Under the pieces are notes generated by a model that was not told the DNA's origin, did not search any database, and saw nothing but the letters and a program-made list of their open reading frames with translations. Shown one piece after another: positions 2,149-46,907 of a stretch of 64,000 nucleotides of DNA. Source of the stretch: an uncultured beta proteobacterium (lineage in GTDB: Bacteria; Pseudomonadota; Gammaproteobacteria; Burkholderiales; Casimicrobiaceae); the NCBI GenBank assembly GCA_963749795.1, contig CAVVOR010000001.1:87957-151956 (forward strand). Reading direction: 5' to 3'. The stretch's first letter is position 1; each line of letters opens with the position of its first letter. A program made the translations under genes and the position numbers.

Positions 2149-2334
2149 CGTGGTGCTGGAGCCTTAAGGATCGCGTGCTAACATCGGCCCCTGTCACGAC
2201 GCGATGGATTTGATTGTCGGGCGCCTCGGGCCTTATTTGCGCCCGTCCCGCGACCGTCGGCAAGTAAGGCGCTGTTGCTGTAGCGGGCCAGCTGACCATT
2301 GCGGACCGCTCGACAGCCCAAACATTGATCTTAC

Positions 2335-3033: not shown

Positions 3034-3037
3034 ACGA

Positions 3038-5020: not shown

Positions 5021-5094
5021 CACGATCTCCGACCGGAGCGCATGACCCAATCCACCGTGTCGTCGAATCAGAAAGTTCCTGCGTCGTCCAACTC

Positions 5095-5682
5095 ATGCTG
5101 TTCAATGTTCCCACCGCGCTCACCTGGCTCCGGATCATTCTGATTCCGGTGTTCGTCGGCGTTTACTATTTACCTAACGCGTGGATGTCGTTGCCGCACA
5201 AGAACTGGCTGGCGATGAGCGTGTTCGCTCTGGCCGCGATTACCGATTGGGCCGATGGATATCTCGCACGCAAATTGGGACAGACCTCGGCGTTCGGCGC
5301 GTTCCTCGATCCGGTCGCCGACAAGCTGATGGTCGCGGCGGCGCTGATCCTGCTGGTCTGGCTCGATCGCGCGGAGGCCTGGCTCGCCATCATCATCATC
5401 GGTCGTGAGATCGCGATATCGGCGCTGCGCGAGTGGATGGCGCAGCTTGGTCAATCGAAGAGTGTCGCGGTGGCATTCATCGGCAAGGTCAAGACTGGCG
5501 CGCAAATCACCGCCATCATTGCCTTGCTGCTGTTCCAGCCGGTGATTCCGGGTATCAACACCGTGTGGCTCGGCACGACGGCATTGTGGGTCGCGGCGAT
5601 TCTGACGCTGTGGTCGATGTTCCACTATCTACGCATCGCCGCGCCCCATTTTCGCGCCAAGCCCAAGCGCGATCCTTTCTGA
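5095..5682 (+). CDS. pgsA: CDP-diacylglycerol--glycerol-3-phosphate 3-phosphatidyltransferase
   Basis: CDP-alcohol phosphatidyltransferase motif DWADGYLARKLGQTSAFGAFLDPVADKL. Conserved uvrC-pgsA-tRNA neighbourhood. Confidence 0.9.
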   Translation: MLFNVPTALTWLRIILIPVFVGVYYLPNAWMSLPHKNWLAMSVFALAAITDWADGYLARKLGQTSAFGAFLDPVADKLMVAAALILLVWLDRAEAWLAIIIIGREIAISALREWMAQLGQSKSVAVAFIGKVKTGAQITAIIALLLFQPVIPGINTVWLGTTALWVAAILTLWSMFHYLRIAAPHFRAKPKRDPF

Positions 5683-5744
5683 TCGGGCCGCACGTCGTTG
5701 CGGCGGTGAAAGGGTTGTCCGGTGTTGGCGCAGCCGGCAGCGAA

Positions 5745-5774
5745 TTGACCCGGGTATGGTCGAGCGACTATAAT
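5745..5774 (+). promoter_or_regulatory. sigma70-type promoter for tRNA-Asn
   Basis: TTGACC (5745-5750), 18-nt spacer, TATAAT (5769-5774), 10 nt before the mature tRNA 5' end. Confidence 0.6.
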
Positions 5775-5784
5775 GTTCGGCTGT

Positions 5785-5860
5785 TCCCTGATAGCTCAGT
5801 TGGTAGAGCGACGGACTGTTAATCCGCAGGTCCCTGGTTCGAGCCCAGGTCGGGGAGCCA
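5785..5860 (+). tRNA. tRNA-Asn (anticodon GTT)
   Basis: 76-nt cloverleaf folded by hand. Acceptor TCCCTGA/TCGGGGA, D arm GCTC..GAGC, anticodon loop CTGTTAA, T arm CCTGG TTCGAGC CCAGG, encoded CCA. Close to my recollection of E. coli tRNA-Asn. Confidence 0.93.
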
Positions 5861-5868
5861 AGCTACAT

Positions 5869-5900
5869 GCGGCCCGCAGCGATGCGGGCCGTTTCTTTTT
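5869..5900 (+). terminator. rho-independent terminator after tRNA-Asn
   Basis: GCGGCCCGCA gcga TGCGGGCCGT stem followed by TTCTTTTT. Confidence 0.7.
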
Positions 5901-6051
5901 GCTCCGCAATTCTGGCTTTGCTCCGCAAAAATGTGGATAACCTGATCAGCGCGATCGATTGCTGAGGCAATACAGTCCTGGGCCAGCGGCACACATTTGG
6001 TGTGGCAGATGCGTAGATTCGCGCCGCGCCTCCGCACCTGAATATCATACT

Positions 6052-6118
6052 AAACAGTTATTTTTGAACTGTTTCTTTCAAAATACCGTAGGACCCCGTG
6101 GACGACCACGTAGCTCCG
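6052..6118 (+). other. orphan TetR-family 5' end (about 17 codons) preceded by an operator-like palindrome
   Basis: AAACAGTT-N7-AACTGTTT palindrome at 6052-6074. Then ..FQNTVGPRGRPRSS.. parallels the start of the intact TetR gene at 7337 (..IQNTARPRGRPRSF..), with mostly synonymous codon differences. Similarity stops after about 6118. Confidence 0.45.
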
Positions 6119-6213
6119 GCAATCTCCCGCTGATTCACCGCGATCAGGTCAGCCGCGATCGGGCCTTTCTTCAGGACACCGCTCTCAAGGTGCTGCGGAA
6201 GACGACGAATTTT

Positions 6214-7221
6214 CTATGTCAATCCGACGGGCCGTTTTGGCATCAGCGGACCCGCATGAGACGCGGGTCTGACAGGCGATAAATTGACGCCGGAGACATT
6301 GACGACGGCCTGCCACGCGGCTTCCTGGTTGGCGCCATCGAGGAGATGTGGTTGGAGTTGCACTTCCATCGGGCCTGAGAACTTCCCTTGAGCCGAGGCG
6401 AAGAATTGCCCTGATACGTCGGTTCCGAACTCCGACGCCTGGAGGTAGCGACGGGCCGCGGTCTCCGGCGCCTGATTCATGCCGGGAATGCGGTTCACGA
6501 TTGGAATCATCAGATACTTCAACAACGGGCCAGCATTTCGCGCCACATTGGTGGCGTTCGACGCACCGGGCGATACGGCGTACACGGCCATGCCGGAGGG
6601 CAGCCGGCGGGCCAGCGCCGCGGCCCACCAAGCGACAATGAGCTTCGCGTCGGCATACGCATTGTTGGGCGCGTACTTCACGTGCGGCCCGTTGCGAATC
6701 AGGGCTTCAACAGCGGCGGTTTGGTCACCCCGGAAGTATTTAGCCGCGAAGGCGAACGCGTCGGTGTACTTGAACATGGGCACGCCCCCGCGGGCAGGCT
6801 CCGCGCTGGTGATAACGATCCGCGCGTTGGGGCTCAGCAGGTTGGCGCGAAGCAACCCGACAGTCAGTTGATGGTGGCCGATCAGCGGGGCTTGAGAAGC
6901 CTCGATGCCCGCCGCAGTGAGCACACGATTCTTGCCTGGAACCATCCCTGCATTGAGCAGCAGGAAATCGATCGGCTGACCCCGCTTGACCAGTTCGGCG
7001 AGTGCGGACTGAACGCTGGACGACGAGTCCAGATCCAACTCCAACGGCGTGAAGATTTTTTTCTTGATCTCAGCCGCGAGTTGAGCAGCCGTATGCTGGA
7101 CCGCGCCAAGCCTGCGTCCGGTGACGATGACCTGTTTATAGCCCTTGGCGGCGAGCAAGCCGGCTGCCGCATAACCGAGCCCGGATGTGGCGCCGGTGAT
7201 GAGGGCGATTGAATGTTCCAT
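6214..7221 (-). CDS. SDR-family oxidoreductase
   Basis: N-terminal ALITGATSGLGYAAAGLLA Rossmann motif. Divergent from the TetR gene. Confidence 0.85.
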   Translation of the reverse strand: MEHSIALITGATSGLGYAAAGLLAAKGYKQVIVTGRRLGAVQHTAAQLAAEIKKKIFTPLELDLDSSSSVQSALAELVKRGQPIDFLLLNAGMVPGKNRVLTAAGIEASQAPLIGHHQLTVGLLRANLLSPNARIVITSAEPARGGVPMFKYTDAFAFAAKYFRGDQTAAVEALIRNGPHVKYAPNNAYADAKLIVAWWAAALARRLPSGMAVYAVSPGASNATNVARNAGPLLKYLMIPIVNRIPGMNQAPETAARRYLQASEFGTDVSGQFFASAQGKFSGPMEVQLQPHLLDGANQEAAWQAVVNVSGVNLSPVRPASHAGPLMPKRPVGLT

Positions 7222-7336
7222 GGGGGCTCCGTGGTGAAAGGGGGTCGAGTCGTGAGGCCCCCGCGAGGCGAGGGCCGGCTTGCTATTTTCGAACTATTCA
7301 GTTATATATTGGTGCGGTGACCATTGTCAATGAATT
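7222..7336. promoter_or_regulatory. divergent promoter/operator region between the SDR and TetR genes
   Basis: A/T-rich 115-bp spacer with short inverted repeats (AACTattcAGTT at 7292-7303; TTGAAccaaatgaTTCAA across the TetR start). No experimental support. Confidence 0.35.
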
Positions 7337-7960
7337 TTGAACCAAATGATTCAAAATACCGCTAGGCCGCGGGGTCGACCGCGCAGCTTCGACGAGACGG
7401 GGGCGCTGGACAAGGCGACTCAGGTGTTCTGGTCGAAAGGCTACGACGGAGTGACGATCGACGATCTCGTCGCCGGGATGGGCGTAGGACGGCCGAGCCT
7501 GTATGCCGTCTTCGGGGACAAGCGGGCGATATTCTTGCGCGTCCTTATGGCGTACGCGGAACGGAAGGGCGCATTAGCCGCGAAGGCACTCCTCGCACCT
7601 CAGACTATTCGCGACGCGATCGCGGACTTTCTGAGGTACGCCGTCGAAAGTGCGACCCAGAAAGGGTCCGCCCGGGGCTGCCTCATGATGTGCGTCGCGC
7701 CGCTTGTGAATGACGCTGAGGTTCAGCGGTTCCTGCAGCGCGCCGTCGCGGGCGGCGTGGCGCTGGTGGAGCGCCGTTTCCGGGACGGGATCAGCGCGGG
7801 AGAAATCCCGCCTGACTTTCCGGTGGCCGTGCGCGCGGTCCAAGTCACAGATTTTGCTCGTGCCTTGACCATGCGTGCGCAGATAGGCACGCCGCGCAAG
7901 ACGCTCCTCAAAGAGGCAGAGGAAGCAACCGACTTGGTGCTTCAGCCGCGGCGCGTCTGA
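7337..7960 (+). CDS. TetR/AcrR-family transcriptional regulator
   Basis: HTH region LDKATQVFWSKGYDGVTIDDLVAGMGVGRPSLYAVFGDK. Confidence 0.9.
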   Translation: MNQMIQNTARPRGRPRSFDETGALDKATQVFWSKGYDGVTIDDLVAGMGVGRPSLYAVFGDKRAIFLRVLMAYAERKGALAAKALLAPQTIRDAIADFLRYAVESATQKGSARGCLMMCVAPLVNDAEVQRFLQRAVAGGVALVERRFRDGISAGEIPPDFPVAVRAVQVTDFARALTMRAQIGTPRKTLLKEAEEATDLVLQPRRV

Positions 7961-8219
7961 CGGGTTATCGGAAACAATTCACTGAGAAATGACCATGACA
8001 ACTGACATGAGCGGGCGACCTGGAGCATTTCGCAAGTCCGGCCATGGTTTCTATGCGTACGGCTGACTTGGTTTTGGACGCAAGGCCGTGTTGTCGACGC
8101 GTCGCTCTGATTCGACGCGTCAGTCCACTCCCAATCGCGTACGTGCATTTGCCGGCGTGAGCGCCGGTCGGCCTGCCATCTTAATGGAAAGTGGCGCACG
8201 CCACGACTTTCCCGATTTG

Positions 8220-9185
8220 CTATTGCGCCTTGATCCCCGCGGCCTTGATGACCTTCGCCGAATCCTCGATTTCCGCCTGCACGAACTTGTGGAACTCGGC
8301 TGGGGTCATCGGCATCGGTTCGGCACCCAGCGTCGCGAGCCGCTCCTTGACGTCGGGCGCCTGCGCCGCCCGGTCGATGTCCTTGTTGATCTTGTCGACG
8401 ATGTCCGGCGGCGTTCCGGCCGGCGCGAACACGCCGACCCACAGGTTGTAGTCGAATCCCGGCAACGCCGCCTCGGCGATCGTCGGTACGTTGGGCAATG
8501 CGCTCGACCGCTTGGCCGTACTCACCCCCAGCGCGATCAGCTTGCCTTCGCGCACGTTGGGTAACGCCGCCGAGATCGGTGAAAAGAAAAACGTGACGCG
8601 GCCGGCCAGCGTGTCGTTAAGCGCCTCGGGCGTGCCTTTGTAGGGGATGTGCACGACGTCGATGCCGGCCGCGAGCTTGAATTTCTCCGCGTTGATATGC
8701 GTGCCGCTGCCGGTGCCGGCGGATCCGAAGTTAAGTTGCCCGGGTTTTTGCTTGGCCAGCGCGATCAGCTCCGCGACGGACTTGACCCCGGTGGCTGGCG
8801 CGACGATGAGCACGTTGGGTTGCCCGGCGAGAGGTGCAATCTCGGCGAAATCCTTGGACGTGTCGTAGGAAAGCGTCGGGTAGATCGACGCGTTGTAAGC
8901 CTGCGCAGCGGAGTTCACCAGCAGCGTGTAGCCGTCGGGCGGGGATTTCGCCACCACCGCGGCGCCGATCGTGCCCCCGGCCCCCGGGCGGTTCTCGACG
9001 ATCACCGACTGGCCCCACATCTCCGACAATTTCTGACCAAAGGTGCGCGCCAGGATGTCGGTGGCGCTACCCGCGGTGAACGGAACGATGAGACGCACGG
9101 TCTTGTTCGGATAACCCTGTCCCGTCGCCAACGGCACGCAACAAAGCGCAATCGCGATGCCGGCAATCCAGCGCCCGAGTTTCAT
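8220..9185 (-). CDS. Bug/TctC-family tripartite tricarboxylate transporter substrate-binding protein
   Basis: Signal peptide, then YPNKTVRLIVPFTAGSATD.., the characteristic Bug-family N-terminus. About 320 aa. Confidence 0.9.
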   Translation of the reverse strand: MKLGRWIAGIAIALCCVPLATGQGYPNKTVRLIVPFTAGSATDILARTFGQKLSEMWGQSVIVENRPGAGGTIGAAVVAKSPPDGYTLLVNSAAQAYNASIYPTLSYDTSKDFAEIAPLAGQPNVLIVAPATGVKSVAELIALAKQKPGQLNFGSAGTGSGTHINAEKFKLAAGIDVVHIPYKGTPEALNDTLAGRVTFFFSPISAALPNVREGKLIALGVSTAKRSSALPNVPTIAEAALPGFDYNLWVGVFAPAGTPPDIVDKINKDIDRAAQAPDVKERLATLGAEPMPMTPAEFHKFVQAEIEDSAKVIKAAGIKAQ

Positions 9186-19034: not shown

Positions 19035-19277
19035 GGCGGTACTCCAAAGTCTGACCCAGTGATTGTAGGGTTACCGCTGGCGCCGGGAAGCACCGCTAGA
19101 TCTAACCTATCGAAATTCGCAATTTTTTGATGCCGCGAAACTTCCACTCGAAAATCGGCAAGAATGCCGCCATGAAGCGTTCGATCCGGTGTCCCCGCAG
19201 GTCGTACTGATCTGGGAACTCGCCCGCGGCGGCGATTTTCGGGGTGGAGCAGCGGCGGGCGCGAGGCGCTTTGTGCT

Positions 19278-20595
19278 TTGGCGTGCGGTAGGTCCGCCGG
19301 CAGGCGGGTCGAGCTGCATCTGATTATCGCGTTCTGTTTGATGCGCCAAGGACATCACTCCGAAGCCCTACCCGAGCTTGAGAATGCGGCTCAGGCTGCC
19401 GGCCCCCTTGGCGCGGACTCCGAAAAAACGTGTCGCGTCGATGCGTGGCGTGCCGAACTCGCCTACTTTCAAGGCCGCTACTCGGACGCAAGCCAAATGC
19501 TCGATCGCTTGCTGCGACGCTTGGAGCAAAACTGCGATTGGGGGTATGTCGCCTTTGCGCTGCGTATACGTATCGCGATCCTTCTTGCACGCGCCGATTA
19601 TGAGGGCGCCTTAGCGCTGGCCGAGCGAGCAATCCAGGTTGCGGAGACGAGCGGAGACGACGACGTCATCGTCCAGATTCTCAACGTCCTTGGCGCGGTC
19701 TATTTTGATCGTGCCACCTCGAAACGAACGCGCCTCACGCGCGGGCTCACCTGACGTCTCTCGATGCGCGGGACGTAGTTCCCATGGGAGACCGACGCCC
19801 GCGATGCGCTTCATTGTTTTCAACGTGCACGCGCCGTCGCCGAGCGCGCGCACTACGACTTCGCGGCGTGGTACGTGGCGGGCAATATCGAACGACTGGA
19901 GATTGTCCTGGGCCACGCAGACCGCGCCATTCGCCCTATTCGGACGACGCCTCAAGGCACTGCAGGCGCGCGGCGCGACCTACGATGAAATCGTGGCGCG
20001 CTGAATCTCGCTTGGGCGCTGCGAACCCTGGGTCGTCACCAGGAGGCATTGCACGAACTCGAGGTCGCCCTCAAAGTTGCTCGCGATACAGGAACGTTCA
20101 ACGTCCTGCTCGAGTTCCTCGAGTATGACCACTCGATCGTTCTCGATGCCTTGGGCGAATCGCGGGCGCGTGCGCAAGCTAACGCATTATAAGCAGTTGG
20201 TGGACGCTTGCAACGGAAAATTACGGGATTCTCCAAACGCCGAGCATTCACCGTCGGCCAAGCGCCCGCTCGAACCTTTCTTTCTCAAGCGAGCGGATCG
20301 CTTCATTCTGGAACACCTGGGCGACGCATTCACGGTGCCAGATCTGGCAAGGCACTGTGGGGTGAGCTGGCGAACGCTGGAGGGGGCGTTCAATGCTTTT
20401 CGCGGTCTCGCGCCCGTAACCCATGTACGTAACGTTCGACTCGACCGTGCCCACCTCGCGCTCGCTGATACACACGATAGCGTTGCCGAAATCGCCTCGC
20501 GTTATGGCTTTCGTAGCTCCACCACATTTGCGCTTGAGTATCGGAAACGCTTTGGACGGGCACCCAGGCACGCCAGACGGATGGTTCGGGGCTAG
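19278..20595 (+). pseudogene. AraC-family regulator with TPR-like N-terminal region, multiply frameshifted
   Basis: C-terminal AraC HTH (..VAEIASRYGFRSSTTFALEYRKRFGRAP..) in frame 1. Helical-repeat segments (..ALALAERAIQVAETSGDD.., ..NLAWALRTLGRHQEALHELEVALKVARDTG..) sit in other frames with internal stops. May begin further upstream (about 19110). Confidence 0.65.
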
Positions 20596-20726
20596 TGCGA
20601 TCGTGCTTGGAAAGTCACCCGCGCACTGAAGTCCATCTCGGTATTGAAGTACGTCGCGAGTGACCAGAATCGACCGGCTATTTCGGGTCGAAAGCGCCGT
20701 CGGACGGCTGCTTTTGGCAGCCTACC

Positions 20727-22376
20727 CTAAGGTCCGCTCTTGGCCGAACGCGCGCATGCTGAGGCGCGATCGTGCGCGAGCCGCTCGACAATCGTCTCGC
20801 GTAATTGACGCTTGAGAATCTTTCCGACCGGGCTCACCGGTAGTTCGTGGAACAATTCCAGCCGCTCCGGCAGCTTGAACGAAGCGATCTGCCTTTCGCG
20901 CAGAAACGAGATCAGGTCGGCGAAGGCCAGCGTTTCGCCGGGCAGTGTGACCACGCACGCACAGGCTTTCTCACCGAACACGGGGTCGGGCATGCCGACC
21001 AGCACCGCGGACTTGACGCTCGGATGTCCGAGCATGAGGCTCTCGATCTCCTCGCAGCTGATCTTCTCGCCGCCGCGGTTGATCATGTCCTTGCGCCGAC
21101 CCTCGGTGTAGAGGTAACGGCCGCGGCGCCGGACAATGTCGCCCATCCGGTACCAGCCCCCGGGCAGGAAGGCCTCGGCGTTCTTGTCGGGTGCGTTGTA
21201 GTAGCCGCGGATCGTGTAGGGGCCGCGGGTGACGAGCTCTCCTGCTTCGCCGTCGGCTACTTCGCCACCGGCGTCGTCGACGACCATGATCTCGTCCTCG
21301 TCGCATACCGGCGTGCCCGAACTTTCGAGCAGCAGCTCGTCCGGATCGCCGAGACGAGTCATGTTGATGAGACCCTCGGCCGTACCGTAGATTTCCTGCG
21401 GCGTGCAGCCGAGTTGCTGGCGGAGGCGGCGCCGCAACTCCGGCGCAAGGCGCGCCCCACCGTTCTGCACGACCGCGAGCGATGACAGATCGTATGCTGA
21501 TAATGCTTCGGAGTTCAGCCACGTCGTGATCAGCGGCACGACCGCGGCGATCACCGTGACCCGCTCCCGCTGCACCAGCGAGAAGACTTCGTCGACGCTC
21601 GTGCCGGGTGCGATCACGACCGTACCGCCATAGTAGAACGCACCCAGCATGCCCGGCGATGCCAGGTTGTAGTTATGCCCCAACGGCAGGATGGCCATGA
21701 ACACCGTGCGGTCGGAGAAGCCCCCCGCGGCGCCGCACAGGCGTGCGTTGAGCACGTAATCGTCGTGTGTGCGCGGGATCAGCTTCGAAAGCGACGTCGT
21801 GCCGCCCGACAGAAGCATCGTCGATACGTCGGCGGGCCGGGGCCCATTCGCCGGAGCCGGCGCATCGGGCAGGCTGGCCAGCGCCAATTGGCCTGGCGCC
21901 GGTTCGCCGGCCACGAGCACATGCTTCAGCGCGGGGAACTCGGCCTGCATTTCCCGAGCCATGACTCGGAAGTCAAAGCCACCCGCGACATCGGGTATCA
22001 GATAGGCCGTTGCACCGGATGCGCGCAGGAAATGCCGCACCTCGGCTTGGCGATGCGCGCGCAGAGCCATCACCGGAATGACTCCGATCATGTTGACCGC
22101 GAGGTAGCTGACGACGAACTCAATGGTGTTCGGCAATTGCATTAGCACGAGATCGCCGGACCGCAGGCCAAGACCGGCGAGACGGGCGGCGCGGTCCTTC
22201 GAGCGTGCGAGCAGTTCGCTGTAGGTCAGACGCTGCTCCGCCTGCACTAGGGCGAGCTTATCCGGCGAGCGACGCGCGGTACGCGCAAACATCTCACCGA
22301 TGGTCAGCCCTTCCCACAGTCCGCTCGCACGATAGTGCGCTGCGACATCCTCCGGCCAGCCCACAAAGCCTTCCAT
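20727..22376 (-). CDS. aryl-acid (2,3-dihydroxybenzoate/salicylate)-AMP ligase, DhbE/EntE-like
   Basis: Close end-to-end resemblance to DhbE as I recall it: WPEDVAAHYRASGLWEG.., LLSGGTTSLSKLIPRTHDDY, GPYTIRGYY, INRGGEKIS. Start moved to MEGFVGWPED.. at 22376. Confidence 0.85.
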   Translation of the reverse strand: MEGFVGWPEDVAAHYRASGLWEGLTIGEMFARTARRSPDKLALVQAEQRLTYSELLARSKDRAARLAGLGLRSGDLVLMQLPNTIEFVVSYLAVNMIGVIPVMALRAHRQAEVRHFLRASGATAYLIPDVAGGFDFRVMAREMQAEFPALKHVLVAGEPAPGQLALASLPDAPAPANGPRPADVSTMLLSGGTTSLSKLIPRTHDDYVLNARLCGAAGGFSDRTVFMAILPLGHNYNLASPGMLGAFYYGGTVVIAPGTSVDEVFSLVQRERVTVIAAVVPLITTWLNSEALSAYDLSSLAVVQNGGARLAPELRRRLRQQLGCTPQEIYGTAEGLINMTRLGDPDELLLESSGTPVCDEDEIMVVDDAGGEVADGEAGELVTRGPYTIRGYYNAPDKNAEAFLPGGWYRMGDIVRRRGRYLYTEGRRKDMINRGGEKISCEEIESLMLGHPSVKSAVLVGMPDPVFGEKACACVVTLPGETLAFADLISFLRERQIASFKLPERLELFHELPVSPVGKILKRQLRETIVERLAHDRASACARSAKSGP

Positions 22377-22464
22377 GGCACTCGTCTCCCGTGCTCTCAG
22401 CGTACGGCGGATGAAGGCACTTCGTGGATTCCCTGCTTGCGCCGCATGATCACGATGGCTTCCT

Positions 22465-23610
22465 TCAGGCAAGGACGTCCGGGTGCAACGCCTCATAGGC
22501 GGCCGCCAGCTTCGGATCCCGACGTCTGACTTCAGCGTGATCGACACGACCGGTGCGCGTCATGTAACTGTGAGCAAACTCCACCGGCCTGAGCGCCTGG
22601 ACGAGACCGTCCATGTCCTCATACCAGCGCAGGCTCGCGTTCGCCGCTTCCCAGATCTTCCTCATCGGTGGCAGGCGCTCTTGCTGAAACAACGCCAGCG
22701 CGCCGGGGACGTCTTTCGACCCGACTTCCCTGAAGGCCTTGAACAAGGCGACGGAATCCTCCATCGCCAAGCGTGTGCCCGAGCCGATCGAGAAGTGCGC
22801 AGTGCGCAGCGCATCGCCCAGCAGCACGACATTCTCGAAGCTCCAGCGCTCGTTCCAGATCACCGGGAAATTGCGCCACTGCGAATTGTTCGAGATGATC
22901 CGATGCCCATCCAAGTCCTTTGCGAAGACTCGCTCGCAATAGCGGATCGTTTCGTCAGGGCTCATGGACTCGAAGCCTGCGCGCTTCCAGGTGGCGGCTT
23001 CGACCTCGACCAGGAACGTGCTGCGGTCGGGATGGTAACGGTAGTGATGCGCGCAGAAAACGCCGAGGTCCGTCTCGCGAAATGTTAGCGTCAGGCTGTC
23101 GAAGGCCTTGGTGCTGCCGTACCAGATGAATTTGTTGTGGCCCCAGTCCGTCGTGGTGCCGAACCTGTCCTCGTTCTCGCTGCGGATCCACGAAAATGCT
23201 CCGTTCGCCCCGACGACGAGATCAGCTTCGCCCAACTGTGCCAACGTCGTGATGTCCGCGCCGAAATGCAGCTTCACGCCGAGCCGCTCGACATAGTCGT
23301 ACAGAAGCGTCAGCAACTCGAGGCGGCCGATGGAGGCGAACCCGTTGCCGGCGATCGGAATCGCCGTGTCGTTATGGACGATGGTGATGTTTGGCCAGTT
23401 TTCCAGATGCGGCGTCAAGTACTGGTACAGCGCCTCGTCGTCGGCCCGCAGGAACTCCAGCGCGCGGTCGGAGAACACCACGCCAAAGCCCCAGGTAGCA
23501 TCGCGCGCGTTGCGATCGAAGATCGCGATGTCGTGCGACGGGTCAAGGCGCTTCATCAGTGCCGCGAAGTACAAGCCAGCCGGGCCCGCACCCAGGATCC
23601 GGATCTTCAT
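22465..23610 (-). CDS. FAD-dependent monooxygenase resembling the N-terminal half of salicylyl-CoA 5-hydroxylase / 2-aminobenzoyl-CoA monooxygenase
   Basis: MKIRILGAGPAGLYFAALMKRLDP..WGFGVVFSDRALEFL pattern. 381 aa, no OYE-like reductase half. Confidence 0.8.
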   Translation of the reverse strand: MKIRILGAGPAGLYFAALMKRLDPSHDIAIFDRNARDATWGFGVVFSDRALEFLRADDEALYQYLTPHLENWPNITIVHNDTAIPIAGNGFASIGRLELLTLLYDYVERLGVKLHFGADITTLAQLGEADLVVGANGAFSWIRSENEDRFGTTTDWGHNKFIWYGSTKAFDSLTLTFRETDLGVFCAHHYRYHPDRSTFLVEVEAATWKRAGFESMSPDETIRYCERVFAKDLDGHRIISNNSQWRNFPVIWNERWSFENVVLLGDALRTAHFSIGSGTRLAMEDSVALFKAFREVGSKDVPGALALFQQERLPPMRKIWEAANASLRWYEDMDGLVQALRPVEFAHSYMTRTGRVDHAEVRRRDPKLAAAYEALHPDVLA

Positions 23611-23628
23611 CAGCGGTCCGGACCTAAC

Positions 23629-25585
23629 TCAGAGACAACGCAGCGACGGATCACGCACGAAGCGCAGGTAGGAGCGCACCTTGCGGAAGCCGCCTTGGTC
23701 CGCGAACATGCGCTCTGCCTCCTCGTCCGAGATGAAAGGCAGAACCACTGTGTCATCTCCCGGCTGCCAGTTCGCCGGCGTGGCCACGCGATACTTCGCC
23801 GAGAGCTGCAAGGCATCCAGGATGCGCAGGATCTCATTGAAGTTGCGGCCGATGAAGGCCGGGTAAGAGAGGATCAACTCGACTCGCTTCGACGGCGAGA
23901 TGATGAACACACAGCGCACTGTCATCGTCTCGCCCAAGCCGGTCCCGTGGCGGAACGTGGTGGGGTCGAGCATGCCGAAGAGCATCGACACGCGACGATC
24001 CTTGTCTGCGATGATCGGGAAGTTCACCTGCGTGTGTTGCGTCTCGTTGATGTCCGCGATCCAGCGTGCATGGTCCTCGGCGCTGTCAACGCTCAGACCG
24101 ATAACTTTGGTGTTGCGTATGCTCCACTCGTGGTGGAGCTTGGCGGTCATGCCGAACTCGGTCGTGCATACCGGCGTGAAGTCGGCAGGGTGCGAGAAAA
24201 AAACACACCATGAATCGCCGATGAACTCGTGGAAGTTGATTGGACCCATACTGGTCTCGGCGGTGAAGTCGGGGACACTGTCGCCGATGCGGATGTAGCC
24301 CTGCTTCTTCAACTGTTCCCGCGTCTTGGTGAACACGCCGTCCGGTCCCAAATACTTGTACTCGAACGCCTTGTGTCCCACCTCGTCGAGGTCCGGCAGC
24401 AGGGTCTCGTACTCGTGGTCGAGCAACTTCACAGTCCGCTTCTTCACCGAGCCGGCAAACGCGAACGTCCCGTCGGGTTTGCGGATCAGCGGCAGATCGA
24501 AGCGGAACGAGCTATCGGCCAGAAAGTCCTCCTCGTCGCTGGTGTTCGGTCGCTGCTGGATCTTGTTGCGGTGGGGGAACCGGCCGAAGCGCTTTATCAC
24601 CGCGACATGTCGGTGAAAGATTTCGTGGAAGACGTTCAGCGGGTCATCTGGCGCGAGACCTTCCATCGCACGTTCCCACTCCTCCATGCACAAAAGCTGA
24701 TCGTCCAGCACTTCGGAGTGGGTCAGCGCCAGGCAGAGGAAGACGCGCTCGATCGGGCGCAGGCGCGCGCCCACGCCGACGCGCAGCCCACGCTTTACCA
24801 GGCGCTGACAGTGAGCGTCGCAGGCATACATCCGGGGCGTGTCGCGGTACATGTTGCGGGTGAATTGGTCGAGCATGATCACCAGTGCCACTAACAGGCG
24901 CGGGTGTTCGACATTCAGGGCCCAGTGATCGTACTGACCCGTGGATGCCAGAGCCACGTCGGTGCCGAACCGATTCAGGATGTCCTGGTCCGTCTGCTCG
25001 GACTTGCCGAACCAGAGATTCAGGCATTCTTCGATATTCGGGCGCACCATGTATTGCAGGACTCGTTCAGCCTTGTCGATCTCCGCCGTCGCCAGCTGTA
25101 TGCGGTCGGTCTTGAGCAGCATGCGCAGCTCGTTCCCAAGTCCGTCCAGGTCCGCTCCAGAGAGTGTGTCGCGCTCTTCCAGGCCGGCGAGGATCACCTG
25201 CAGGCTTTGCTGGATACGCTGGCCCAGCACTTCGGCCGGTGCGATGGACAGCAAATGGTTCATTTCGCGAACCTTCCGCACGAGACTCCCCATGAACGTG
25301 ATCGCCCGCTGCGGATCGTTTTGCATCAATGGGATGAACTCGTCGTAAGTGGTTGCCACGCATTCGGCATCGGTTACTGCCTTGACCGTGGCTGATCGCG
25401 GACCCGGCTCGATCAGCGCCATTTCACCGAACACGTCGCCAGCGACGAGGGTTGCGACGGTTTTGGCTTTCGTCTCCTTGCCGACGCTGACCTGGACCGA
25501 GCCGGAGACGACGAGGAACGCAGTGTTGCCGTCTTCCCCCTCGAGAAATAATCGTGTCGCCGGCCTTAAGCTTGATGGTCTGCAT
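23629..25585 (-). CDS. three-domain fusion: cyclic-nucleotide-binding domain - DUF924 - 1-Cys peroxiredoxin (one extra base near the 5' end)
   Basis: cNMP motif FGEMALIEPGPRSATVKAV. DUF924 motifs WFGKSEQTDQDILNRFG and RFGRFPHRNKIQQRPNTSDEE. Prx motif FSHPADFTPVCTTE. ATG at 25585 with GAGGTGA RBS; frame broken at the C5 run 25536-25540. Length is 1 mod 3. Confidence 0.75.
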
Positions 25586-25696
25586 TGATCTCACCTCGAA
25601 ATCCAGGTTGCATGGGTACGCTCTTTCTTCGGGCCAGGCTTGGAAAAGATCAAGGTTCTGCGCAGATTCATGCGCGACGCCAGCTACGGGATGAAA

Positions 25697-26660
25697 CTAG
25701 AACTTCAAGTTCGACTCTGCAATGATCTTGGCCGCACCGTTCAAGTCGCGCTCGATGAAGTCGAACGTCCAGGTTGAGGCGCAGAACCGTAAGTCCGATT
25801 TCGCGCAGCCTGTCGCTGACGCCTGGGCTCGCCAGCACTTCCTGCATTGCGCGATGCAGTGGCACCACGAGCGAATCCGGCGTCCGCCCGAAACGAACAG
25901 ACCAAGCCAGATATCGTAGTCGAATCCCGGATAACCCTGCTCCTCCATCGTCGGCGCATTTGCAAACTGTGGCGTGCGCTGAGCGGATGTCGCGCCAAGG
26001 ATCTTCACCTTGCCGGCCGCGACAAGAGGTCGCGCTGCAGTTATGTCCAGAATGCCCAACGGTATATCACCGGCGGCTATCGCCACGGCAACTTGCGCCG
26101 TGCCCTTGTATTGCACGTGAGTCACCTCGACGCTGTTGAGCTTCCCGATCTGTTCCGCGATGAAGTGCGATGGCGCGCCGGTTCCCGCCGACCCGATGAA
26201 CAGCGGCTGTCGCGAAAAATCGCCGGCCGCCAGGAACTGGCGGACGTCGTCGCCCTTCGCTAGCGCGTTGGCAGCGATGAGGTAGGGTTGGGCTCCGATC
26301 AGGCTGACTAACTTCAAATCCTTGTCCGGGGAAAAGGTCAGGACCGCGGCCTGCGTGCGCGGAAAGAGCGTGAACAGCACCGAGTAACCCAGGACCGACG
26401 TTTCGCCGTTCGGTTCGCTGTCGATCACGCGGCGCACCCCGGGGATTCCGTTGCCACCCGGGAAATTCTCCACGATCCAGGTCTGTCCGAGAGCACGCCC
26501 CAATTCTTCGGCCAGGACCCGTGCGATCGCATCGGTCGACCCTCCGGCGGGTAGGGAGAGATATCCTAAGGTGGGACGGTCGGCGCGCGCGCGTGCGCGA
26601 ACGGACCAAGCGCTCCCAGCGCCGCCAGGAACGCATTGAGCAGCCGGCGTCTCGGAATAT
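25697..26660 (-). pseudogene. Bug/TctC-family substrate-binding protein with at least 3 frame breaks
   Basis: Signal peptide (PRRRLLNAFLAALGALGPFAHA) is in a different frame from the mature part (DRPTLGYLSLPAGGSTD..), with the break in a CG-repeat near 26580. Two compensating shifts near 25875 and 25770. No canonical start codon found. Confidence 0.7.
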
Positions 26661-26669
26661 TCGGGAAGG

Positions 26670-28173
26670 TTATGGTGGGGCTCGCCGTGAAGGGTTTGTT
26701 GCAAGACGCCTCTCGAAATCGGCACTCAATTCGTTGCGCTTGGGTTTTCCCATCTCGGTCCTCGGAATCGATGCCAGTCTTACAATCTGCTTGGGCGCGT
26801 GCAAACCCAGTTGCCCCCGGCAGAATGCCAGCAGCGCTGCCTCCGTCACACCGTCACTGTCGGCAATCGCCAGGATTGGAATATCCCCGTAGGCCAAGGA
26901 CCTTACCGCAAACGCCACGGCTTCGTTCACGCCCGGGAAGAACTTGTTTTTCTCAATTTCGGCCGCAAAGACATTGGTGCCGGCCAGAATCATCATGTCG
27001 TCGCTGCGACCGAGGAAGGCCAGCCTGCCGTCGGACGAGACCACTCCCTCATCTCCGGGATAGAACCAGCTGTTGCGGAAATGTTTTCGGTTTGCGATTT
27101 CATCGTCAAGGTAACTGTGGACGATCATTGGCGTCCGCATGCGGATGATGCCGGGTGTTCCGGCGGGGAGGACTTGATCCGCAGGGGAAACGATCTGCAG
27201 TTCTACGCCGGGGAGGGGGGAGCGACCGAGTCTTCGTTGGCCGTGCGGTCGATGGCGCGTGGCCACCGTGGCGGTGCCGACCTCGGTCGAACCGTACCGG
27301 ATGTTGGTCTGTGACCGCAGCACGCCGAACGCATCGGTCGAAAAGCGATGACGAAACGGTCGATCCGGCGAGATCGATCCGGATGTGATCCAGCACCGGG
27401 AACGGCCCCGGGAGGGCTTCGGCTTGCACGAGCAGCGCTTCCGCACTGTGGGTGAACATTTGGATTTCGGTGCAGGCGTTCCGCGCGCATGTCTGGAGGA
27501 TGTCCGAATTGCGCAGCGTCGAAGACAGGACCGACGTCGCACCAAAGAGCAAGTCGATGAAAGCCCGGCCCTTCGGTGCGTTGTTTTCGATGGAGGACAG
27601 GAGCAGCACCACGCGGGGAGGGACCGAGTGCTCGTACCTGCGGTCGAGGAGGTTGCGCTGGCGGAAAGGCATTAGCTTGGGCCTGCCGGTACTGCCGGAG
27701 TTGGCGAAGATGACCAGGCTCTTCTCATGCGCGGCGACCGGGACATCGCAGCGTCCTTCCGCAATCGCCGTCGCGGCCACGGCCCGCGCATCGAGCACGA
27801 TGGCGCCTGCGTCGGGAACCACGGTCGAATCGCCCTCGCAACATGCCAGCGGATCTTCAGCCGCCGAGCCGTGAGGATGCTCGCAGGCATGGGATCGTTA
27901 GTCGCGAGGCAAACCTGCGAGCAAGCAAGCTCGATAAGCCAGCGAGACCAGGAGGTGGTCGTATTCGTGCCTGACCGTAATGCCGGCAAGATCACCCGCG
28001 CGCACACCCGAATTCCGGAGCCACTGCGCCATGCGCAGGACGTCGGTCCAAAGCTCCGCGTAGGAAATACGCTCGTTGGCGTGGATGACAGCAGCGGTGC
28101 CGGGAATCGTCGCGGCGTGGCGAGCAACGACGTCGGTGAGGCACCGGTGTTCCTGGGAGGGTTGTGCGCTCAC
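26670..28173 (-). pseudogene. acyl-CoA synthetase (AMP-binding family) with an in-frame TAA and a frameshift
   Basis: ANSGSTGRPK P-loop motif. The ORFs 27898..28173 and 27106..27822 are in the same frame, separated by TAA at 27898-27900. A further shift near 27340-27400 leads into ORF 26670..27545 (..WFYPGDEG..GRSDDMMILAGTNV..). Confidence 0.75.
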
Positions 28174-28290
28174 TGTGCTCAGATTTGCCCGGTTTGGCGA
28201 GCCAAAGATATATCATGTGGCCTGCAGTGATGCGGGCCGTTCTATTTTCACTTCGCAATTAGCGTTTCGCTTGGAGCGAGCTAAATGCCG

Positions 28291-29328
28291 TTACGCCAAC
28301 TTGAATTTTAGCGATCCCAGCTTCTCGATCGTACTCACGATTTCATCGCCGGCCTTCAGCCATACTTGCTTGTCTTTGGGATATCCGAGAATGACGCCCT
28401 GAGGCGTCCCCGACCAAATGATGTCACCGGGCTCCAGCGTCCACATCTTGGTAATGTAGGCGATCAGCTTTTGGGGATTGAAAATCATGAGACTGGTATT
28501 GGACGATTGACGTTCCTCCCCATTCACATGAGTCTCGATCTTCAAGTTGTTGGGGTCGCCGAGGACGTCCGCCGACACAAAGTAAGGCCCAATCGGGCCG
28601 AAGCTATCGAGCGTCTTCCCGACCATCCATTGAACGTTCGGCGTTTCCAACTGCAGATCGCGTGCGGAGAAGTCTTGCGAAGTGCAATAGCCTGCGACAT
28701 AGTTCAGAGCGTCGGCTTCAGACACGTTGCGAGCTCTCTTTCCAATGACGATCAGGAGCTCCGTTTCGTAGTCGAACTTATATGCAACTTCCCTGGGCGG
28801 CAACTTGATCGTGCAATTGTGCGCAGCGAGCGCGTTGTTGTACTTGTTGAACAAAATCGGCACGCTCGGGAGCTTTTCATTCGTTTCCTGAACGTGGGCC
28901 CGGTAATTCAGCCCGATACAGACGATCTTGCCTGGATTCGTGAATAGCCTGCCGAAGGTAATCGATGATTCGTTGACCATCGCAGTCTTGGCCTTGGGTG
29001 AGGTCTTCGCGGCAGCAACGAGTTTATTGAGTCCCTTGGCGTTACCTTCCATGAGCAATTCCTCGAGCGTCACCGGGGCCGCGATGCCGAGCAAATGGGA
29101 GGCTTTGCGCACATCCAGTACGGCACCGTTGTCCAGTTTGACGCCCAGAGTTTCCGATCCATCGGGATTTTGCATCGATAGAAGGGTGACGTTGGTCGGC
29201 ATCTCGTGAGGGCCGCTGTATTTCTTGACCGTTGCACTCTTATCGACCGAGGTCGATGCGGTCGCTGCTCCGGCAATACCCGCCGTCACGGCGCCTGCTG
29301 TCTTTAAGAAGGTTCGTCTGGAAGACAT
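28291..29328 (-). CDS. fumarylacetoacetate hydrolase (FAH) family protein with twin-arginine signal peptide
   Basis: MSSRRTFLKTAGAVTAGIAGAATA matches the S-R-R-x-F-L-K Tat consensus. FAH core: GLNYRAHVQE, FDYETELLIVIGK, SGTPQGV. Confidence 0.85.
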   Translation of the reverse strand: MSSRRTFLKTAGAVTAGIAGAATASTSVDKSATVKKYSGPHEMPTNVTLLSMQNPDGSETLGVKLDNGAVLDVRKASHLLGIAAPVTLEELLMEGNAKGLNKLVAAAKTSPKAKTAMVNESSITFGRLFTNPGKIVCIGLNYRAHVQETNEKLPSVPILFNKYNNALAAHNCTIKLPPREVAYKFDYETELLIVIGKRARNVSEADALNYVAGYCTSQDFSARDLQLETPNVQWMVGKTLDSFGPIGPYFVSADVLGDPNNLKIETHVNGEERQSSNTSLMIFNPQKLIAYITKMWTLEPGDIIWSGTPQGVILGYPKDKQVWLKAGDEIVSTIEKLGSLKFKLA

Positions 29329-29587
29329 GTGTGTTACCTCCGGGTCATGTCGATTTTTGCCCGACTACTGGTCGAGTCCTGCATGTCGGCAGGGCAACGG
29401 TGGCTCCCTGGAATACTCTACGTGCCAGCCGCGTTCCAATGATATTCCATCGCCAGCGACAGTTCATGGTTCGAGCCCAATCAGGGAATATCAGGGAATC
29501 GCATCGACCAAGGGCATGATTGGCGAGATGAACAGGCTGCCCGAGCGATGGCCGTCTGGCAAATGCCTCCAGTACCGTTACGGGACG

Positions 29588-30529
29588 TCAGATGTGCATG
29601 CGTCTCCACGAACCGGGGCTGCGACCGATGCGCGCAGTGAAGATCCGCGTGAAATGACTTTGGCTTGCGAAGCCACACGCGAGACCAACATCGACCAGCG
29701 ATCTGGCGGGATCGCGCAGAAGCTGCGTGGCCATCTCAACTCTTCGTTCGAGGAGCCATCGGTGTGGCGGAAGTCCCGTCGAACGGCTGAAAGCGCGGGT
29801 GAAGTGTCGAGGCGAGAGCCCGCATTCTTCCGCCAGGCGCGGAACGGAAATCGAATTCTCCCCGGTGGCCGTGAGCAGCGCCTTGACGCGACGTAGCTGC
29901 CAAGGCGCGAGGCCCCCAGTTGATGCGCCAGTGGGCCGACTGCGTAGCTCGCGTATGAACTCGTCGGGTGCGACGTAGTACGGATTCTCTTGCACCCGTC
30001 CGTCCACGATTGTGAACGGGTGCGTTCGCATCACATCGACCAGAAAGTCAGCGGCAAAGCGAGACGAGTCGTAGACGCATATGACCGCGTTCTTGCGCTT
30101 TCTCTGCCGCATCCATACCTCGTTGGCGCGCGCCTCGTATTCGAGGAGGCTGTCGACGGCCGGCGTGCCCTCGAGCGCCCATTCCATGTGGGTTACGAAG
30201 CGCACCTGCGGAAATCCCAGATCCAGAGCCTCGCGTGCCTGGCGCCTGAAAAAGTCGAGCGTGCGCTGCGGCTCGAAGTTGCCATCAGGACGGTGGCTCA
30301 AGTTCCAATCCTGCATCTTGAAGCGGCCGTTTTCGCGCGCCGGTGGGATGTCTACTCCAGCAGCCACTAATCGCGCCTCATGGGCCCCGCAAGAGGCCGG
30401 CGGCACCGTGTGGATCACCTGATACCCACGCCGAATTCCGTCTCCGACGAAGTCGGAGAGCACGCGATCTTGCTCCTCCGCGGAGGAAAAGAATGCGCAA
30501 GCGTGAGGGCGTATGTCGAAAGGCGTCAT
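29588..30529 (-). CDS. MEDS-domain / AraC-HTH transcriptional regulator
   Basis: N-terminal half resembles the MEDS (DcmR-type) sensory domain (HACAFFSSAEEQ.., VTHMEWAL.., VICVYD). C-terminal AraC HTH: GFASQSHFTRIFTARIGRSPGSWRR. Start taken at MTPFDIRPH (30529). Confidence 0.7.
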   Translation of the reverse strand: MTPFDIRPHACAFFSSAEEQDRVLSDFVGDGIRRGYQVIHTVPPASCGAHEARLVAAGVDIPPARENGRFKMQDWNLSHRPDGNFEPQRTLDFFRRQAREALDLGFPQVRFVTHMEWALEGTPAVDSLLEYEARANEVWMRQRKRKNAVICVYDSSRFAADFLVDVMRTHPFTIVDGRVQENPYYVAPDEFIRELRSRPTGASTGGLAPWQLRRVKALLTATGENSISVPRLAEECGLSPRHFTRAFSRSTGLPPHRWLLERRVEMATQLLRDPARSLVDVGLACGFASQSHFTRIFTARIGRSPGSWRRMHI

Positions 30530-30822
30530 CGGGGGAGGGTGCCGCAGGGCTCCAGTCTTGCCTCGGCACGCCTCGATTATATGTCCGTATTCGACAAACC
30601 ATGACGTGACGGTGAAAGACGCGAAGTCCGGGGTACGCAAGTATTGAGGCGTGCGACGAGCGGCGTTTTCTTGGTGCGTTCCTCTCGCCAACTGCTCCTG
30701 TCGCGAGCCGAAAGCTCAGCCGCCCGGCGACACTTGTACGTAGTGCCCTCGCGTCGTCAAGCTCAAGCAACGAGGGGCGTCTGAGCATCCTTCTCTGTTT
30801 AACTCCTTGATGAGGAATCCAC

Positions 30823-31830
30823 GTGATAAAGACCGCCTTCGGAACTCGAGTGATTGGCGTCGCCGTAATCTCCACCCTTGGTCTCGCAACGACTGGCTAC
30901 GCGCAGACCGCTTCGAACGAACCGTTGCGCGACAGCCCCCAAGAAATGGTCGATGCCCTTCACAGCGCGTTCGGCGTCCAGCACGCTCGCGCAGTGCATG
31001 CGAAAGGCATTCTGCTCACGGGTACGTTTACTCCGTCCAAAGACGCTCAGCGCCTTGCGAAGGCAGCGGTGTTCAGCAGCGGCACCGTTCCGATCACGGC
31101 GCGTTTCTCGGATTTCACTGGGATTCCGGAGATTCCGGATACGGTCGGCGACGCCAATCCCCGAGGCCTTGCGATCAAGTTCAAGCTTCCCGGTGATGCG
31201 AGCATGGATATAGTTGCGCACAGCTTCAACGGATTTCCCACGGCCAACGCTAACGAGTTTGGTTATCTGCTGCGTGCCATCGGGACGAGTGGGCCCGAGG
31301 CGAAAAAACCCACTGATATTGATCAATTTCTAGCGACGCACCCGATCGCCAAGACGTTTCTGACGACACAAAAACCGGCACCCGTTAGCTACGGAACCTT
31401 GGCCTATTTCGGAGTCAACTCGTTCAAGTTTACGAGCGCGTCGGGGCAGTCACAGTTTGTGCGGTATCGGTTTGTTCCTCGGGCAGGCGAGCAATTTCTC
31501 GATTCAGCCGCTCTAAAGAGCAAAGGACCCAACTACTTGGCCGAGGAAATCACAGCGCGCATTTCCACCGGTCCGGTCGTCTACGACTGGTACGCGCAGA
31601 TCGCGGCAGCGGGCGACGCTATCGCCGATCCGTCTGTCGCGTGGCCGGAGAGCCGCCAACTCGTCAAACTCGGAACCATCACCATTTCCCGTTTAGTTCC
31701 TGACCAGGCGGCAACGGACAAAGTAACCATGTTCATCCCGAACAATGTTCCCGCAGGCATCGAGCCGGCCGATCCAATGTTGACGGTTCGTAGTTCCGCT
31801 TACCCAATCTCATTTGCCGGCCGTCAATAA
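30823..31830 (+). CDS. secreted catalase-related haem protein (small catalase-family peroxidase)
   Basis: Signal peptide, then ..GVQHARAVHAKGILLTGTFTP.. (the catalase distal His motif HAKG) and ..ARFSDFTGIPEIPD..PRGLAIKF.. About 335 aa, far shorter than true catalases. Confidence 0.8.
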   Translation: MIKTAFGTRVIGVAVISTLGLATTGYAQTASNEPLRDSPQEMVDALHSAFGVQHARAVHAKGILLTGTFTPSKDAQRLAKAAVFSSGTVPITARFSDFTGIPEIPDTVGDANPRGLAIKFKLPGDASMDIVAHSFNGFPTANANEFGYLLRAIGTSGPEAKKPTDIDQFLATHPIAKTFLTTQKPAPVSYGTLAYFGVNSFKFTSASGQSQFVRYRFVPRAGEQFLDSAALKSKGPNYLAEEITARISTGPVVYDWYAQIAAAGDAIADPSVAWPESRQLVKLGTITISRLVPDQAATDKVTMFIPNNVPAGIEPADPMLTVRSSAYPISFAGRQ

Positions 31831-46580: not shown

Positions 46581-46907
46581 CGATCGGGTTTGAGATCAAG
46601 ACCGACCAGGACCCTCTCCGTGTCGGACAGATCGCCAATGATCTTCCGCATCGGCGAAGGAAGCTGCCGGACGACAGTAGGCAACGCCAATATCTGATGT
46701 TCTTTTGCCAGCTTTGGGTTCTTGATCAAATCGATGACCTCAATTCGATAGCCCGCTCCCGTGGCGAGGTGCTCCTCGCAGATCCGCTTGAGGTTGACGA
46801 GCGCCGCCCGCGACCTTACTGTCTCGCCCGCGATGTAGAGAAACAGGACGTGCGCGGCGGCTTTGCGAGGTTTGCGTCGGCGGCACTTGGGCCGCGGTGC
46901 GCGTCAT
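46577..46907 (-). CDS. kaiB: KaiB-family protein, start/frame unresolved
   Basis: Not in the ORF track. My translation of 46577..46864: [95 protein letters not shown]. The only nearby ATG (46905-46907) is one frame off. Length is 1 mod 3. Confidence 0.75.

Follow-up and report, generated by a model that had tools for sequence, protein, structure and literature searches.

A gene encoding a predicted cyclic-nucleotide-capped fusion of DUF924 and a Prx6-type peroxiredoxin in an uncultured beta proteobacterium

The window analyzed here, a stretch of 64,000 nucleotides (nt) from an uncultured beta proteobacterium of the Casimicrobiaceae (contig CAVVOR010000001.1, positions 87,957 to 151,956 of the forward strand), carries on its minus strand a gene in which a cyclic nucleoside monophosphate (cNMP)-binding domain, a DUF924 domain and a peroxiredoxin (Prx) domain follow one another. 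Sequence comparisons indicate that this locus encodes one cytoplasmic protein of 651 amino acids (aa), a member of a conserved, uncharacterised family. In the reading that we favor, to which we give a probability of roughly 0.55 as a whole, a 1-Cys peroxiredoxin of the Prx6/LsfA type is tethered to a cysteine-rich DUF924 module and capped by the cNMP domain, the break in the reading frame is an assembly indel, and the three parts would work together in the manner proposed below. The gene and its parts are as follows (window coordinates; residues numbered in the 651-aa protein).

23629-25585, minus strand: whole gene of the 651-aa cNMP-DUF924-Prx6 fusion (1 base removed), stop codon at 23629-23631
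25536-25542, minus strand: frame-breaking 1-base insertion, coding strand CTC-G-AGGGGG-AA
25315-25573, minus strand: cyclic-nucleotide-binding beta-barrel, residues 5-90 (PF00027)
25384-25431, minus strand: phosphate-binding cassette F52-G-E...R63-S-A-T66, inside the cNMP barrel
25027-25314, minus strand: helical region, residues 91-186 (predicted helices), a C-helix like that of CRP, then a conserved helical extension on the N-terminal side of the DUF924 module
24514-25026, minus strand: DUF924 domain, residues 187-357, with the family-specific invariant C187, C259, C284 and C299
24289-24513, minus strand: conserved connector, residues 358-432, a four-strand beta unit (FRFDLPL...G..F.G) and then a helix (alignments and model)
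23710-24288, minus strand: Prx6-type 1-Cys peroxiredoxin, residues 433-625 (PF00578 and PF10417)
24166-24168, minus strand: peroxidatic Cys473 of the Prx domain
24205-24207, minus strand: extra invariant Cys460 of the Prx domain

Domain content and reading frame of the gene

Domains were assigned with Pfam at its curated gathering cut-offs, and all four models scored above them: cNMP_binding (PF00027; residues 5-90, E 2.6e-20, 72.6 bits against a cut-off of 27.5), DUF924 (PF06041; residues 187-357, E 1.2e-44, 153.1 bits against 27, spanning positions 12-178 of a 180-position profile), AhpC-TSA (PF00578; residues 433-569, E 2.9e-26, 92.3 bits against 26) and 1-cysPrx_C (PF10417; residues 591-625, E 1.1e-10, 41.8 bits against 21.1). 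In a search of 5.8 billion proteins, at least 120 clusters among the matches listed hold the three domains in one frame, with 71-98% identity over the full length and almost all with 649-651 aa, an agreement far in excess of chance; a 71%-identical member comes from a metagenome-assembled genome (MAG) of the alphaproteobacterium Amaricoccus. The UvrC protein of the window has its closest named relatives, at 77-79%, in MAGs of the Casimicrobiaceae (Betaproteobacteria). The three domains that an earlier sequence-only reading had recognized are therefore complete, each with profile support. That reading had also known of no described protein with this architecture. No publication on DUF924, COG3803, Atu0120 or a fusion of cNMP and peroxiredoxin domains came to light; the architecture is nevertheless not rare, being present in hundreds of database proteins, and automatic names given by JGI already spell out its three parts. 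A scan of genome contigs with the family alignment matched mainly stand-alone Prx6 genes and returned no three-domain locus, and a tblastn search of plasmids found stand-alone DUF924 genes only, with no fusion.

The structure was modeled with AlphaFold from a diverse alignment (mean predicted local distance difference test score, pLDDT, 79.9; predicted template modeling score, pTM, 0.49). An earlier model from a shallow alignment (71-98% identity) had a pLDDT of 58 in the Prx domain and a pTM of 0.44. Assignment of the C-terminal part to the Prx6 type, made previously from the letters alone, is borne out by its match to LsfA (PDB 7KUU and 6P0W; E 4e-75, 53-54% identity), on which the model of the domain superimposes in Foldseek with a template modeling (TM) score of 0.94-0.95 and a root-mean-square deviation (rmsd) of 1.2-1.6 A. 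Active-site residues P466, C473 and R557 are invariant in family alignments of 91 and 75 sequences; T470 does not vary among the 75 sequences and is present in at least 90% of the 91. The top NCBIfam match is a stand-alone peroxiredoxin equivalog, PRK13189, a near miss with 204.4 bits under a cut-off of 211. The Prx domain is thus predicted to have an intact 1-Cys peroxidase site.

The N-terminal domain has its closest sequence matches in PKG, PKA-R and CRP. Foldseek matched it to CRP-type barrels with a long C-helix, and PKA-R and PKG were again among the top structural and sequence matches. Strands of the barrel are predicted with a pLDDT of about 75-87. The phosphate-binding cassette reads FGEMALIEPGPRSATV; its G53, R63 and S64 never vary in the 91-sequence alignment, where E54, A65 and T66 each occur in at least 90% of the sequences. 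By these residues the domain contains a competent-looking, predicted cyclic-nucleotide site. It begins at the first beta-strand, without the N-terminal helical bundle of PKA/Epac-type domains, and no helix-turn-helix (HTH) family was found in the Pfam scan of the 651-aa protein; for these two reasons the protein is not regarded as a CRP-family regulator, and its score with the CRP equivalog of NCBIfam is 51 bits against a cut-off of 266.

The barrel might nonetheless bind no cyclic nucleotide and serve as a dimerization module or as a receptor for another ligand, as in several proteins of the CRP/FNR family. The missing helical bundle would fit such a role, as would the presence, among the closest structural neighbors, of CRP-family proteins, whose long C-helix is the dimer interface; moreover, the cNMP domain is dispensable in many family members. 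CRP/FNR relatives that do not bind nucleotides commonly lose the Gly-Glu and Arg-Ser-Ala-Thr residues. Here these ribose- and phosphate-contacting residues vary little or not at all among 91 sequences, and we consider a barrel without affinity for nucleotides very unlikely.

As read, the window holds two open reading frames (ORFs) in place of one, both on the minus strand: 25594-25424, coding for 56 aa (MRSMQTIKLKAGDTIISRGG, followed by out-of-frame residues), and 25434-23629, coding for 601 aa from a GTG start. Deletion of one base within 25536-25542 gives the 651-aa ORF, from an ATG at 25585 to the stop at 23629, and the previous claim that one corrected frame joins the three parts agrees with the single frame of the homolog clusters. 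The error had been located in the run of five C at 25536-25540. A correction there does restore the frame, as does removal of position 25542. The closest syntenic contig (L001, 97% identical), which encodes an intact 651-aa protein, reads TCTC-AGGGGGAGG (coding strand TCTC-AGGGGG) at the break site, and the window reads TCTCGAGGGGGAAG (TCTC-G-AGGGGG). Since the five-base run is equally long in both and the base beside it is missing in L001, with SQGEDG at this site in the two closest homologs, the surplus base is most parsimoniously position 25542 and not one inside the run.

The break is private to this contig, because the homolog clusters hold the three domains in one frame, and it is probably an assembly error, given that 37 small indels, of which 34 involve a single base, separate the window from L001 over about 20 kb of shared sequence. 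Genes for an AMP ligase and a TPR/HTH regulator that are intact in L001 are broken by indels in the window. The genes concerned, together with a TctC gene, are as follows.

26670-28173, minus strand: AMP-ligase gene, 502 aa and intact in L001, at least three ORFs in the window, 7 indels
about 19130-20600, minus strand: TPR/HTH_18 regulator gene, 475 aa in L001, 9 indels
25697-26725, minus strand: TctC gene, 5′ part different from L001, 4 indels

Should the frameshift be real, the gene would be a recent pseudogene, or an internal start would yield an N-terminally truncated DUF924-Prx6 protein resembling the natural 547-aa two-domain forms described below. Local decay fits the clumping of the indels, which are concentrated in a few genes such as the AMP-ligase and TPR/HTH regulator genes and number zero in several neighboring ones; this clumping leaves some room for genuine gene decay in this strain and is the source of our residual doubt about an assembly error. 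The natural occurrence of family members without a cNMP domain points in the same direction. So does the database protein P0014, 597 aa long and 100% identical to the product of this gene, which begins at Met54 and, owing to the exact match, looks like a public, truncated call of it. When the truncated product of the window itself was looked up by exact sequence, no record matched. Against decay stand the single 1-base change in a protein otherwise 96-98% identical to intact relatives, the many further one-base indels in coding sequence of this contig, and the long-read-style names of the relatives' contigs (e.g. contig_..._np1212). A similar frame error is also found at the C-terminus in a sister assembly: P0002 (657 aa, 98% identical) ends in ...RFVVIRRCVVSELSPGR and not in ...RFVRDPSLRCL, which is a C-terminal frame error in another near-identical assembly of the same gene. 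We therefore hold a real frameshift to be unlikely.

Two other origins of the break were considered. A programmed frameshift was rejected, every relative being in one frame at the break site. For a methylation-linked basecalling error, the indels showed no clear enrichment at TCGAG (2 against 1.2 expected) or CGAG (6 against 5.2).

A wider family of DUF924-Prx6 fusions

A search seeded with a diatom homolog revealed a larger DUF924-Prx6 family, most of it without a cNMP domain, of which the three-domain protein is the sensor-bearing variant. Many two-domain proteins of about 547 aa were found in bacteria (Alpha- and Betaproteobacteria); in MAG records of NCBI, where they are named 'DUF924 family protein', they originate from Roseiarcus sp., Xanthobacteraceae and Betaproteobacteria. 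Over the 545 residues that they share with the three-domain form, they are 70-84% identical to it; they have the same six cysteines, connector and helical extension, but lack the first ~105 residues, i.e. the cNMP barrel and the C-helix. Eukaryotic fusions without the sensor were identified in Mesostigma viride (P0142) and in the diatom Asterionellopsis glacialis (P0408). In two Hyphomicrobiales-like contigs (L092 and L093, positions 5000-9100; one named Roseiarcus, the other a related MAG contig) the 547-aa gene lies in the conserved order rsfS-rlmH-[gene]-M23 peptidase-ctpA. The gap upstream of it is only about 110-140 nt, so the sensor is truly missing from these forms. In L093 a glutathione S-transferase gene is located ~2 kb upstream of the 547-aa gene.

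Two- and three-domain forms interleave in a crude, unbootstrapped neighbor-joining tree, which hints that the sensor may have been gained or lost repeatedly. Across these proteins the core association is that of DUF924 with Prx6, to which the sensor is an add-on, and the pairing itself is ancient and tightly conserved. The proposal that the fusion offers a functional handle on DUF924 is supported.

Between the barrel and DUF924 lie helices predicted at residues 91-111, 117-133, 143-158 and 166-179. This region had been described as a helical linker of ~100 aa. Its helical nature is supported by prediction, but it is more than a linker: residues from about 105 onward are conserved also in the 547-aa forms, which retain these helices because their start lies near residue 105.

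The DUF924 domain matches Atu0120 (PDB 2I6H) in sequence (E 1.6e-16) and in fold (TM 0.87-0.90, rmsd 2.1 A). It retains every polar residue conserved in at least 80% of 81 stand-alone DUF924 representatives: W191, D199, D239, Q240, R243, N244, R247, D256, H289, E291, H326, the stretch G334-N340 (GRxPHRN), R345 and E351. In the connector that follows, F360, R361, F362, L364, P365, G372, F376 and Y392 are invariant, and its strands are modeled at residues 366-394 with a pLDDT of 67-82. The beta unit (residues 360-395) is invariant in three-domain, two-domain and algal forms alike.

DUF924 was also searched for on its own. Among representatives clustered at 50% identity, 4,693 proteins matched at E <= 0.001, mostly DUF924 proteins of bacteria and protists; the 150 matches listed are mostly stand-alone proteins of ~200 aa. 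Other fusions comprise EF-hand + DUF924 (one cluster, P0157, from the diatom Stephanodiscus), ChaC + EF-hand + DUF924 (P0167), DUF924 + CH, DCX + DUF924 (Salpingoeca), DUF924 + DUF6687, DUF924 with an SCO4226-like domain, and tandem DUF924. Because EF-hands precede DUF924 in some of these proteins, a second-messenger sensor placed N-terminally to DUF924 is a recurring arrangement. In Acinetobacter baumannii (L088, CP040042.1, positions 2240-4525) a stand-alone DUF924 gene divergently adjoins gshA, encoding glutamate-cysteine ligase, and dsbB; this adjacency and the ChaC fusion P0167 are an anecdotal hint of a link to glutathione.

These observations bear on a different division of labor, in which DUF924 would be an independent enzyme or ligand-binding effector under control of the sensor, and the peroxiredoxin a co-localized protective or accessory activity. 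The polar constellation of DUF924, which resembles a binding or catalytic site, is family-wide and occurs also in stand-alone proteins without the cysteines. Sensors stand directly N-terminal to the domain in the unrelated EF-hand fusions, and none of the CH, DCX, DUF6687 or SCO4226-like partners is redox-linked. Persistence of the DUF924-Prx6 pairing and of the invariant connector across bacteria and two algal lineages, however, argues against mere co-localization, and the subclade-specific cysteines would be left to explain. Also counted against it is P0134, a metagenomic protein of 455 aa, which retains DUF924 with its helical extension as well as the connector and the C460 equivalent, but has a degenerate Prx domain that has lost the FTPVC active site; it is a natural form with an inactivated Prx. 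Overall, an independent effector role for DUF924 is somewhat unlikely.

Proposed working of the fusion

In the proposed scheme, the Prx domain would reduce peroxides at Cys473, which would be converted to a sulfenic acid. The DUF924 module, together with the beta connector, would act as a built-in thiol partner that resolves or recycles the sulfenic acid or takes over the oxidizing equivalent. On binding cAMP or cGMP, the N-terminal barrel would shift the C-helix together with the helical extension, thereby tuning the coupling between DUF924 and Prx. DUF924 is proposed as the partner because peroxiredoxins of the 1-Cys type lack a resolving cysteine. The existence of the gene, of the three domains that it encodes and of their conservation is shown by the data; which part controls which, and what DUF924 does, is what we infer. 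The idea is attractive because LsfA, the closest enzyme to have been studied, resists thiol reductants, namely the thioredoxin and glutaredoxin/glutathione systems, ascorbate being the sole known bacterial reductant (PMC12141841).

Cysteines are the residues through which such a coupling might operate. Seven of them are invariant in the three-domain family: C75 in the cNMP domain, C187, C259, C284 and C299 in DUF924, C460 and the peroxidatic C473 in Prx. Six (187, 259, 284, 299, 460 and 473) are found together in 71 of the 72 bacterial members of alignment A3, and among DUF924 proteins the combination at 187/259/284/299 occurs only in the subclade that surrounds the fusions. Gly or Ala occupies the position of C460 in 70 of 78 stand-alone Prx6 proteins. 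The C-terminal arm has no conserved cysteine (C650 is present in 32% of the sequences), yet C460 lies in the Prx domain and four cysteines lie in DUF924. No member of the glutaredoxin or thioredoxin families was detected outside the Prx domain in the Pfam scan.

Several points weigh against a thiol partnership of this kind. DUF924 has no known redox chemistry, and its cysteines are not family-wide: in the typical stand-alone protein, positions 187, 259, 284 and 299 are occupied by R/Q/K, A, Y and C/S, so that three of the four cysteines are missing, and the algal fusions lack C284 and C460. There is no CxxC motif in DUF924 and no recognized redox fold. For these reasons the cysteines may be structural or metal-binding. 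In PRDX6 structures the residue equivalent to C460 sits at the distal end of strand beta-3, remote from the peroxidatic cysteine, and a direct C460-C473 disulfide would presumably need unfolding. The structure model, with a pTM of only 0.49, says nothing on the packing of the domains. Gene neighborhoods give no sign of the pairing outside the fusion: a DUF924 gene was found within 6 kb of stand-alone Prx6 genes in 0 of the 80 loci returned by the contig scan, and five neighborhoods of stand-alone DUF924 genes were heterogeneous, with no partner in common. The functional link is consequently drawn from the fusion itself. In its most specific form, with DUF924 dedicated to recycling the Prx6-type 1-Cys peroxiredoxins of bacteria and algae, or to relaying their oxidation, by way of the subclade cysteines, and with cAMP or cGMP switching the coupling on or off in the three-domain variant, the scheme is speculative and rather improbable.

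The same cysteines would suit a peroxide sensor in place of a scavenger, in which Prx passes its oxidation on to the DUF924 cysteines in a relay like that of Orp1 and Yap1, merging peroxide and cyclic-nucleotide signals. The sulfenic acid of a 1-Cys peroxiredoxin is well suited to condense with a partner thiol, as in Prx relays. One of the seven invariant cysteines, C75, lies in the cNMP domain itself, and the gene stands alone, without conserved neighbors, as a self-contained module would. However, the Pfam scan revealed no output domain (DNA-binding, kinase or cyclase), and the two-domain form lies among housekeeping genes. The two catalase genes of the window, described below, neither support nor exclude a sensor, which we judge improbable, and a peroxidase coupled to DUF924 under a nucleotide-binding cap is the reading that we retain.

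Gene neighborhood and comparison with known systems

As previously noted, a flavin adenine dinucleotide (FAD) monooxygenase gene (22465-23610) lies 18 nt from the fusion gene on the same strand, with an AMP-ligase gene (20727-22547) beyond it, and the coordinates agree with this spacing. The neighborhood is nevertheless common to the 97%-identical L001 only and is missing from all six more distant three-domain loci, whose neighbors are unrelated; being shared with L001 alone, it is unfit for functional inference. The fusion gene acts as a unit in itself; scanning its surroundings for promoters and terminators was uninformative.

The surrounding minus-strand genes at 20727-30691 encode a MEDS-AraC regulator, an FAA hydrolase, an AMP ligase, TctC, the fusion, the FAD monooxygenase and a second AMP ligase. 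This region, likewise shared with L001 only, looks like an aryl-acid catabolic cluster of the aryl-CoA or gentisate type. Its FAA_hydrolase-family protein (28291-29328, minus strand) opens with a signal resembling those of twin-arginine translocation (MSSRRTFLKTAGAVTAGIAGAATA), which is unusual for an enzyme of the fumarylacetoacetate-hydrolase type. Other peroxide-defense genes lie in the same 64 kb: the window contains two catalase genes, one of the HPII type (1023 bits) and one small catalase-family gene of 335 aa. It also contains a KaiC homolog. An Rfam scan of the window identified one tRNA only.

50712-53111 (minus strand), 30823-31830 (plus strand) and 46740-48410 (minus strand): two catalase genes and a KaiC homolog, listed jointly, one gene each

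DUF924/COG3803 is a large orphan family with one structural-genomics structure and no functional literature that we could find, and the fusion bears also on how bacterial Prx6-type 1-Cys peroxiredoxins are recycled. A DUF924-Prx6 fusion kept across domains of life, with gained cysteines, provides a concrete handle on both. If the proposal is true, it would give a first function to DUF924, with its thousands of members, and a candidate recycler of LsfA-type enzymes; the cNMP-capped variant would be, as far as we found, the first peroxiredoxin under direct second-messenger control. The claim is limited: beyond the domain content all of this is what we infer, and members of the family can already be seen in public databases. 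Hybrid peroxiredoxins as a class are already known, and what is new here is a hybrid capped by a sensor.

Among characterized proteins, the C-terminal 220 residues are closest to LsfA of Pseudomonas aeruginosa (6P0W, 7KUU) and to the Prx6 subfamily (human PRDX6, 1PRX; yeast Prx1, 5YKJ). They have in common the PxxxTxxC + Arg active site, the SHP motif and the 1-cysPrx_C dimerization domain. LsfA and PRDX6, each of about 210-225 aa, stand alone, whereas in the fusion ~430 residues precede the Prx domain, which also differs by Cys460 in place of Gly/Ala and by a 7-residue insertion ahead of the catalytic Arg. For the middle part, the counterpart is Atu0120 of Agrobacterium tumefaciens (2I6H), the sole solved DUF924/COG3803 structure. 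It shares the fold and the signature residues, but is a stand-alone protein of ~200 aa that has neither the helical N-terminal extension nor the beta connector and lacks three of the subclade's four cysteines.

Some hybrid peroxiredoxins bring a reductant with them, for instance Prx5-glutaredoxin of Haemophilus influenzae; in these the fused partner supplies the recycling step. As in the fusion described here, a peroxiredoxin is covalently joined to a second domain; that partner, however, is a CxxC thiol-disulfide oxidoreductase, whereas DUF924 is all-helical, lacks CxxC and has no known chemistry. In the mycobacterial acetyltransferase Pat, too, an enzyme is joined through helices to a cNMP domain at the N-terminus, and the NCBIfam model of Pat (NF058543) matches residues 2-106 of the fusion. 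The output of Pat is a GNAT acetyltransferase, while that of the fusion would be DUF924 and peroxiredoxin, under putative control by a cyclic nucleotide.

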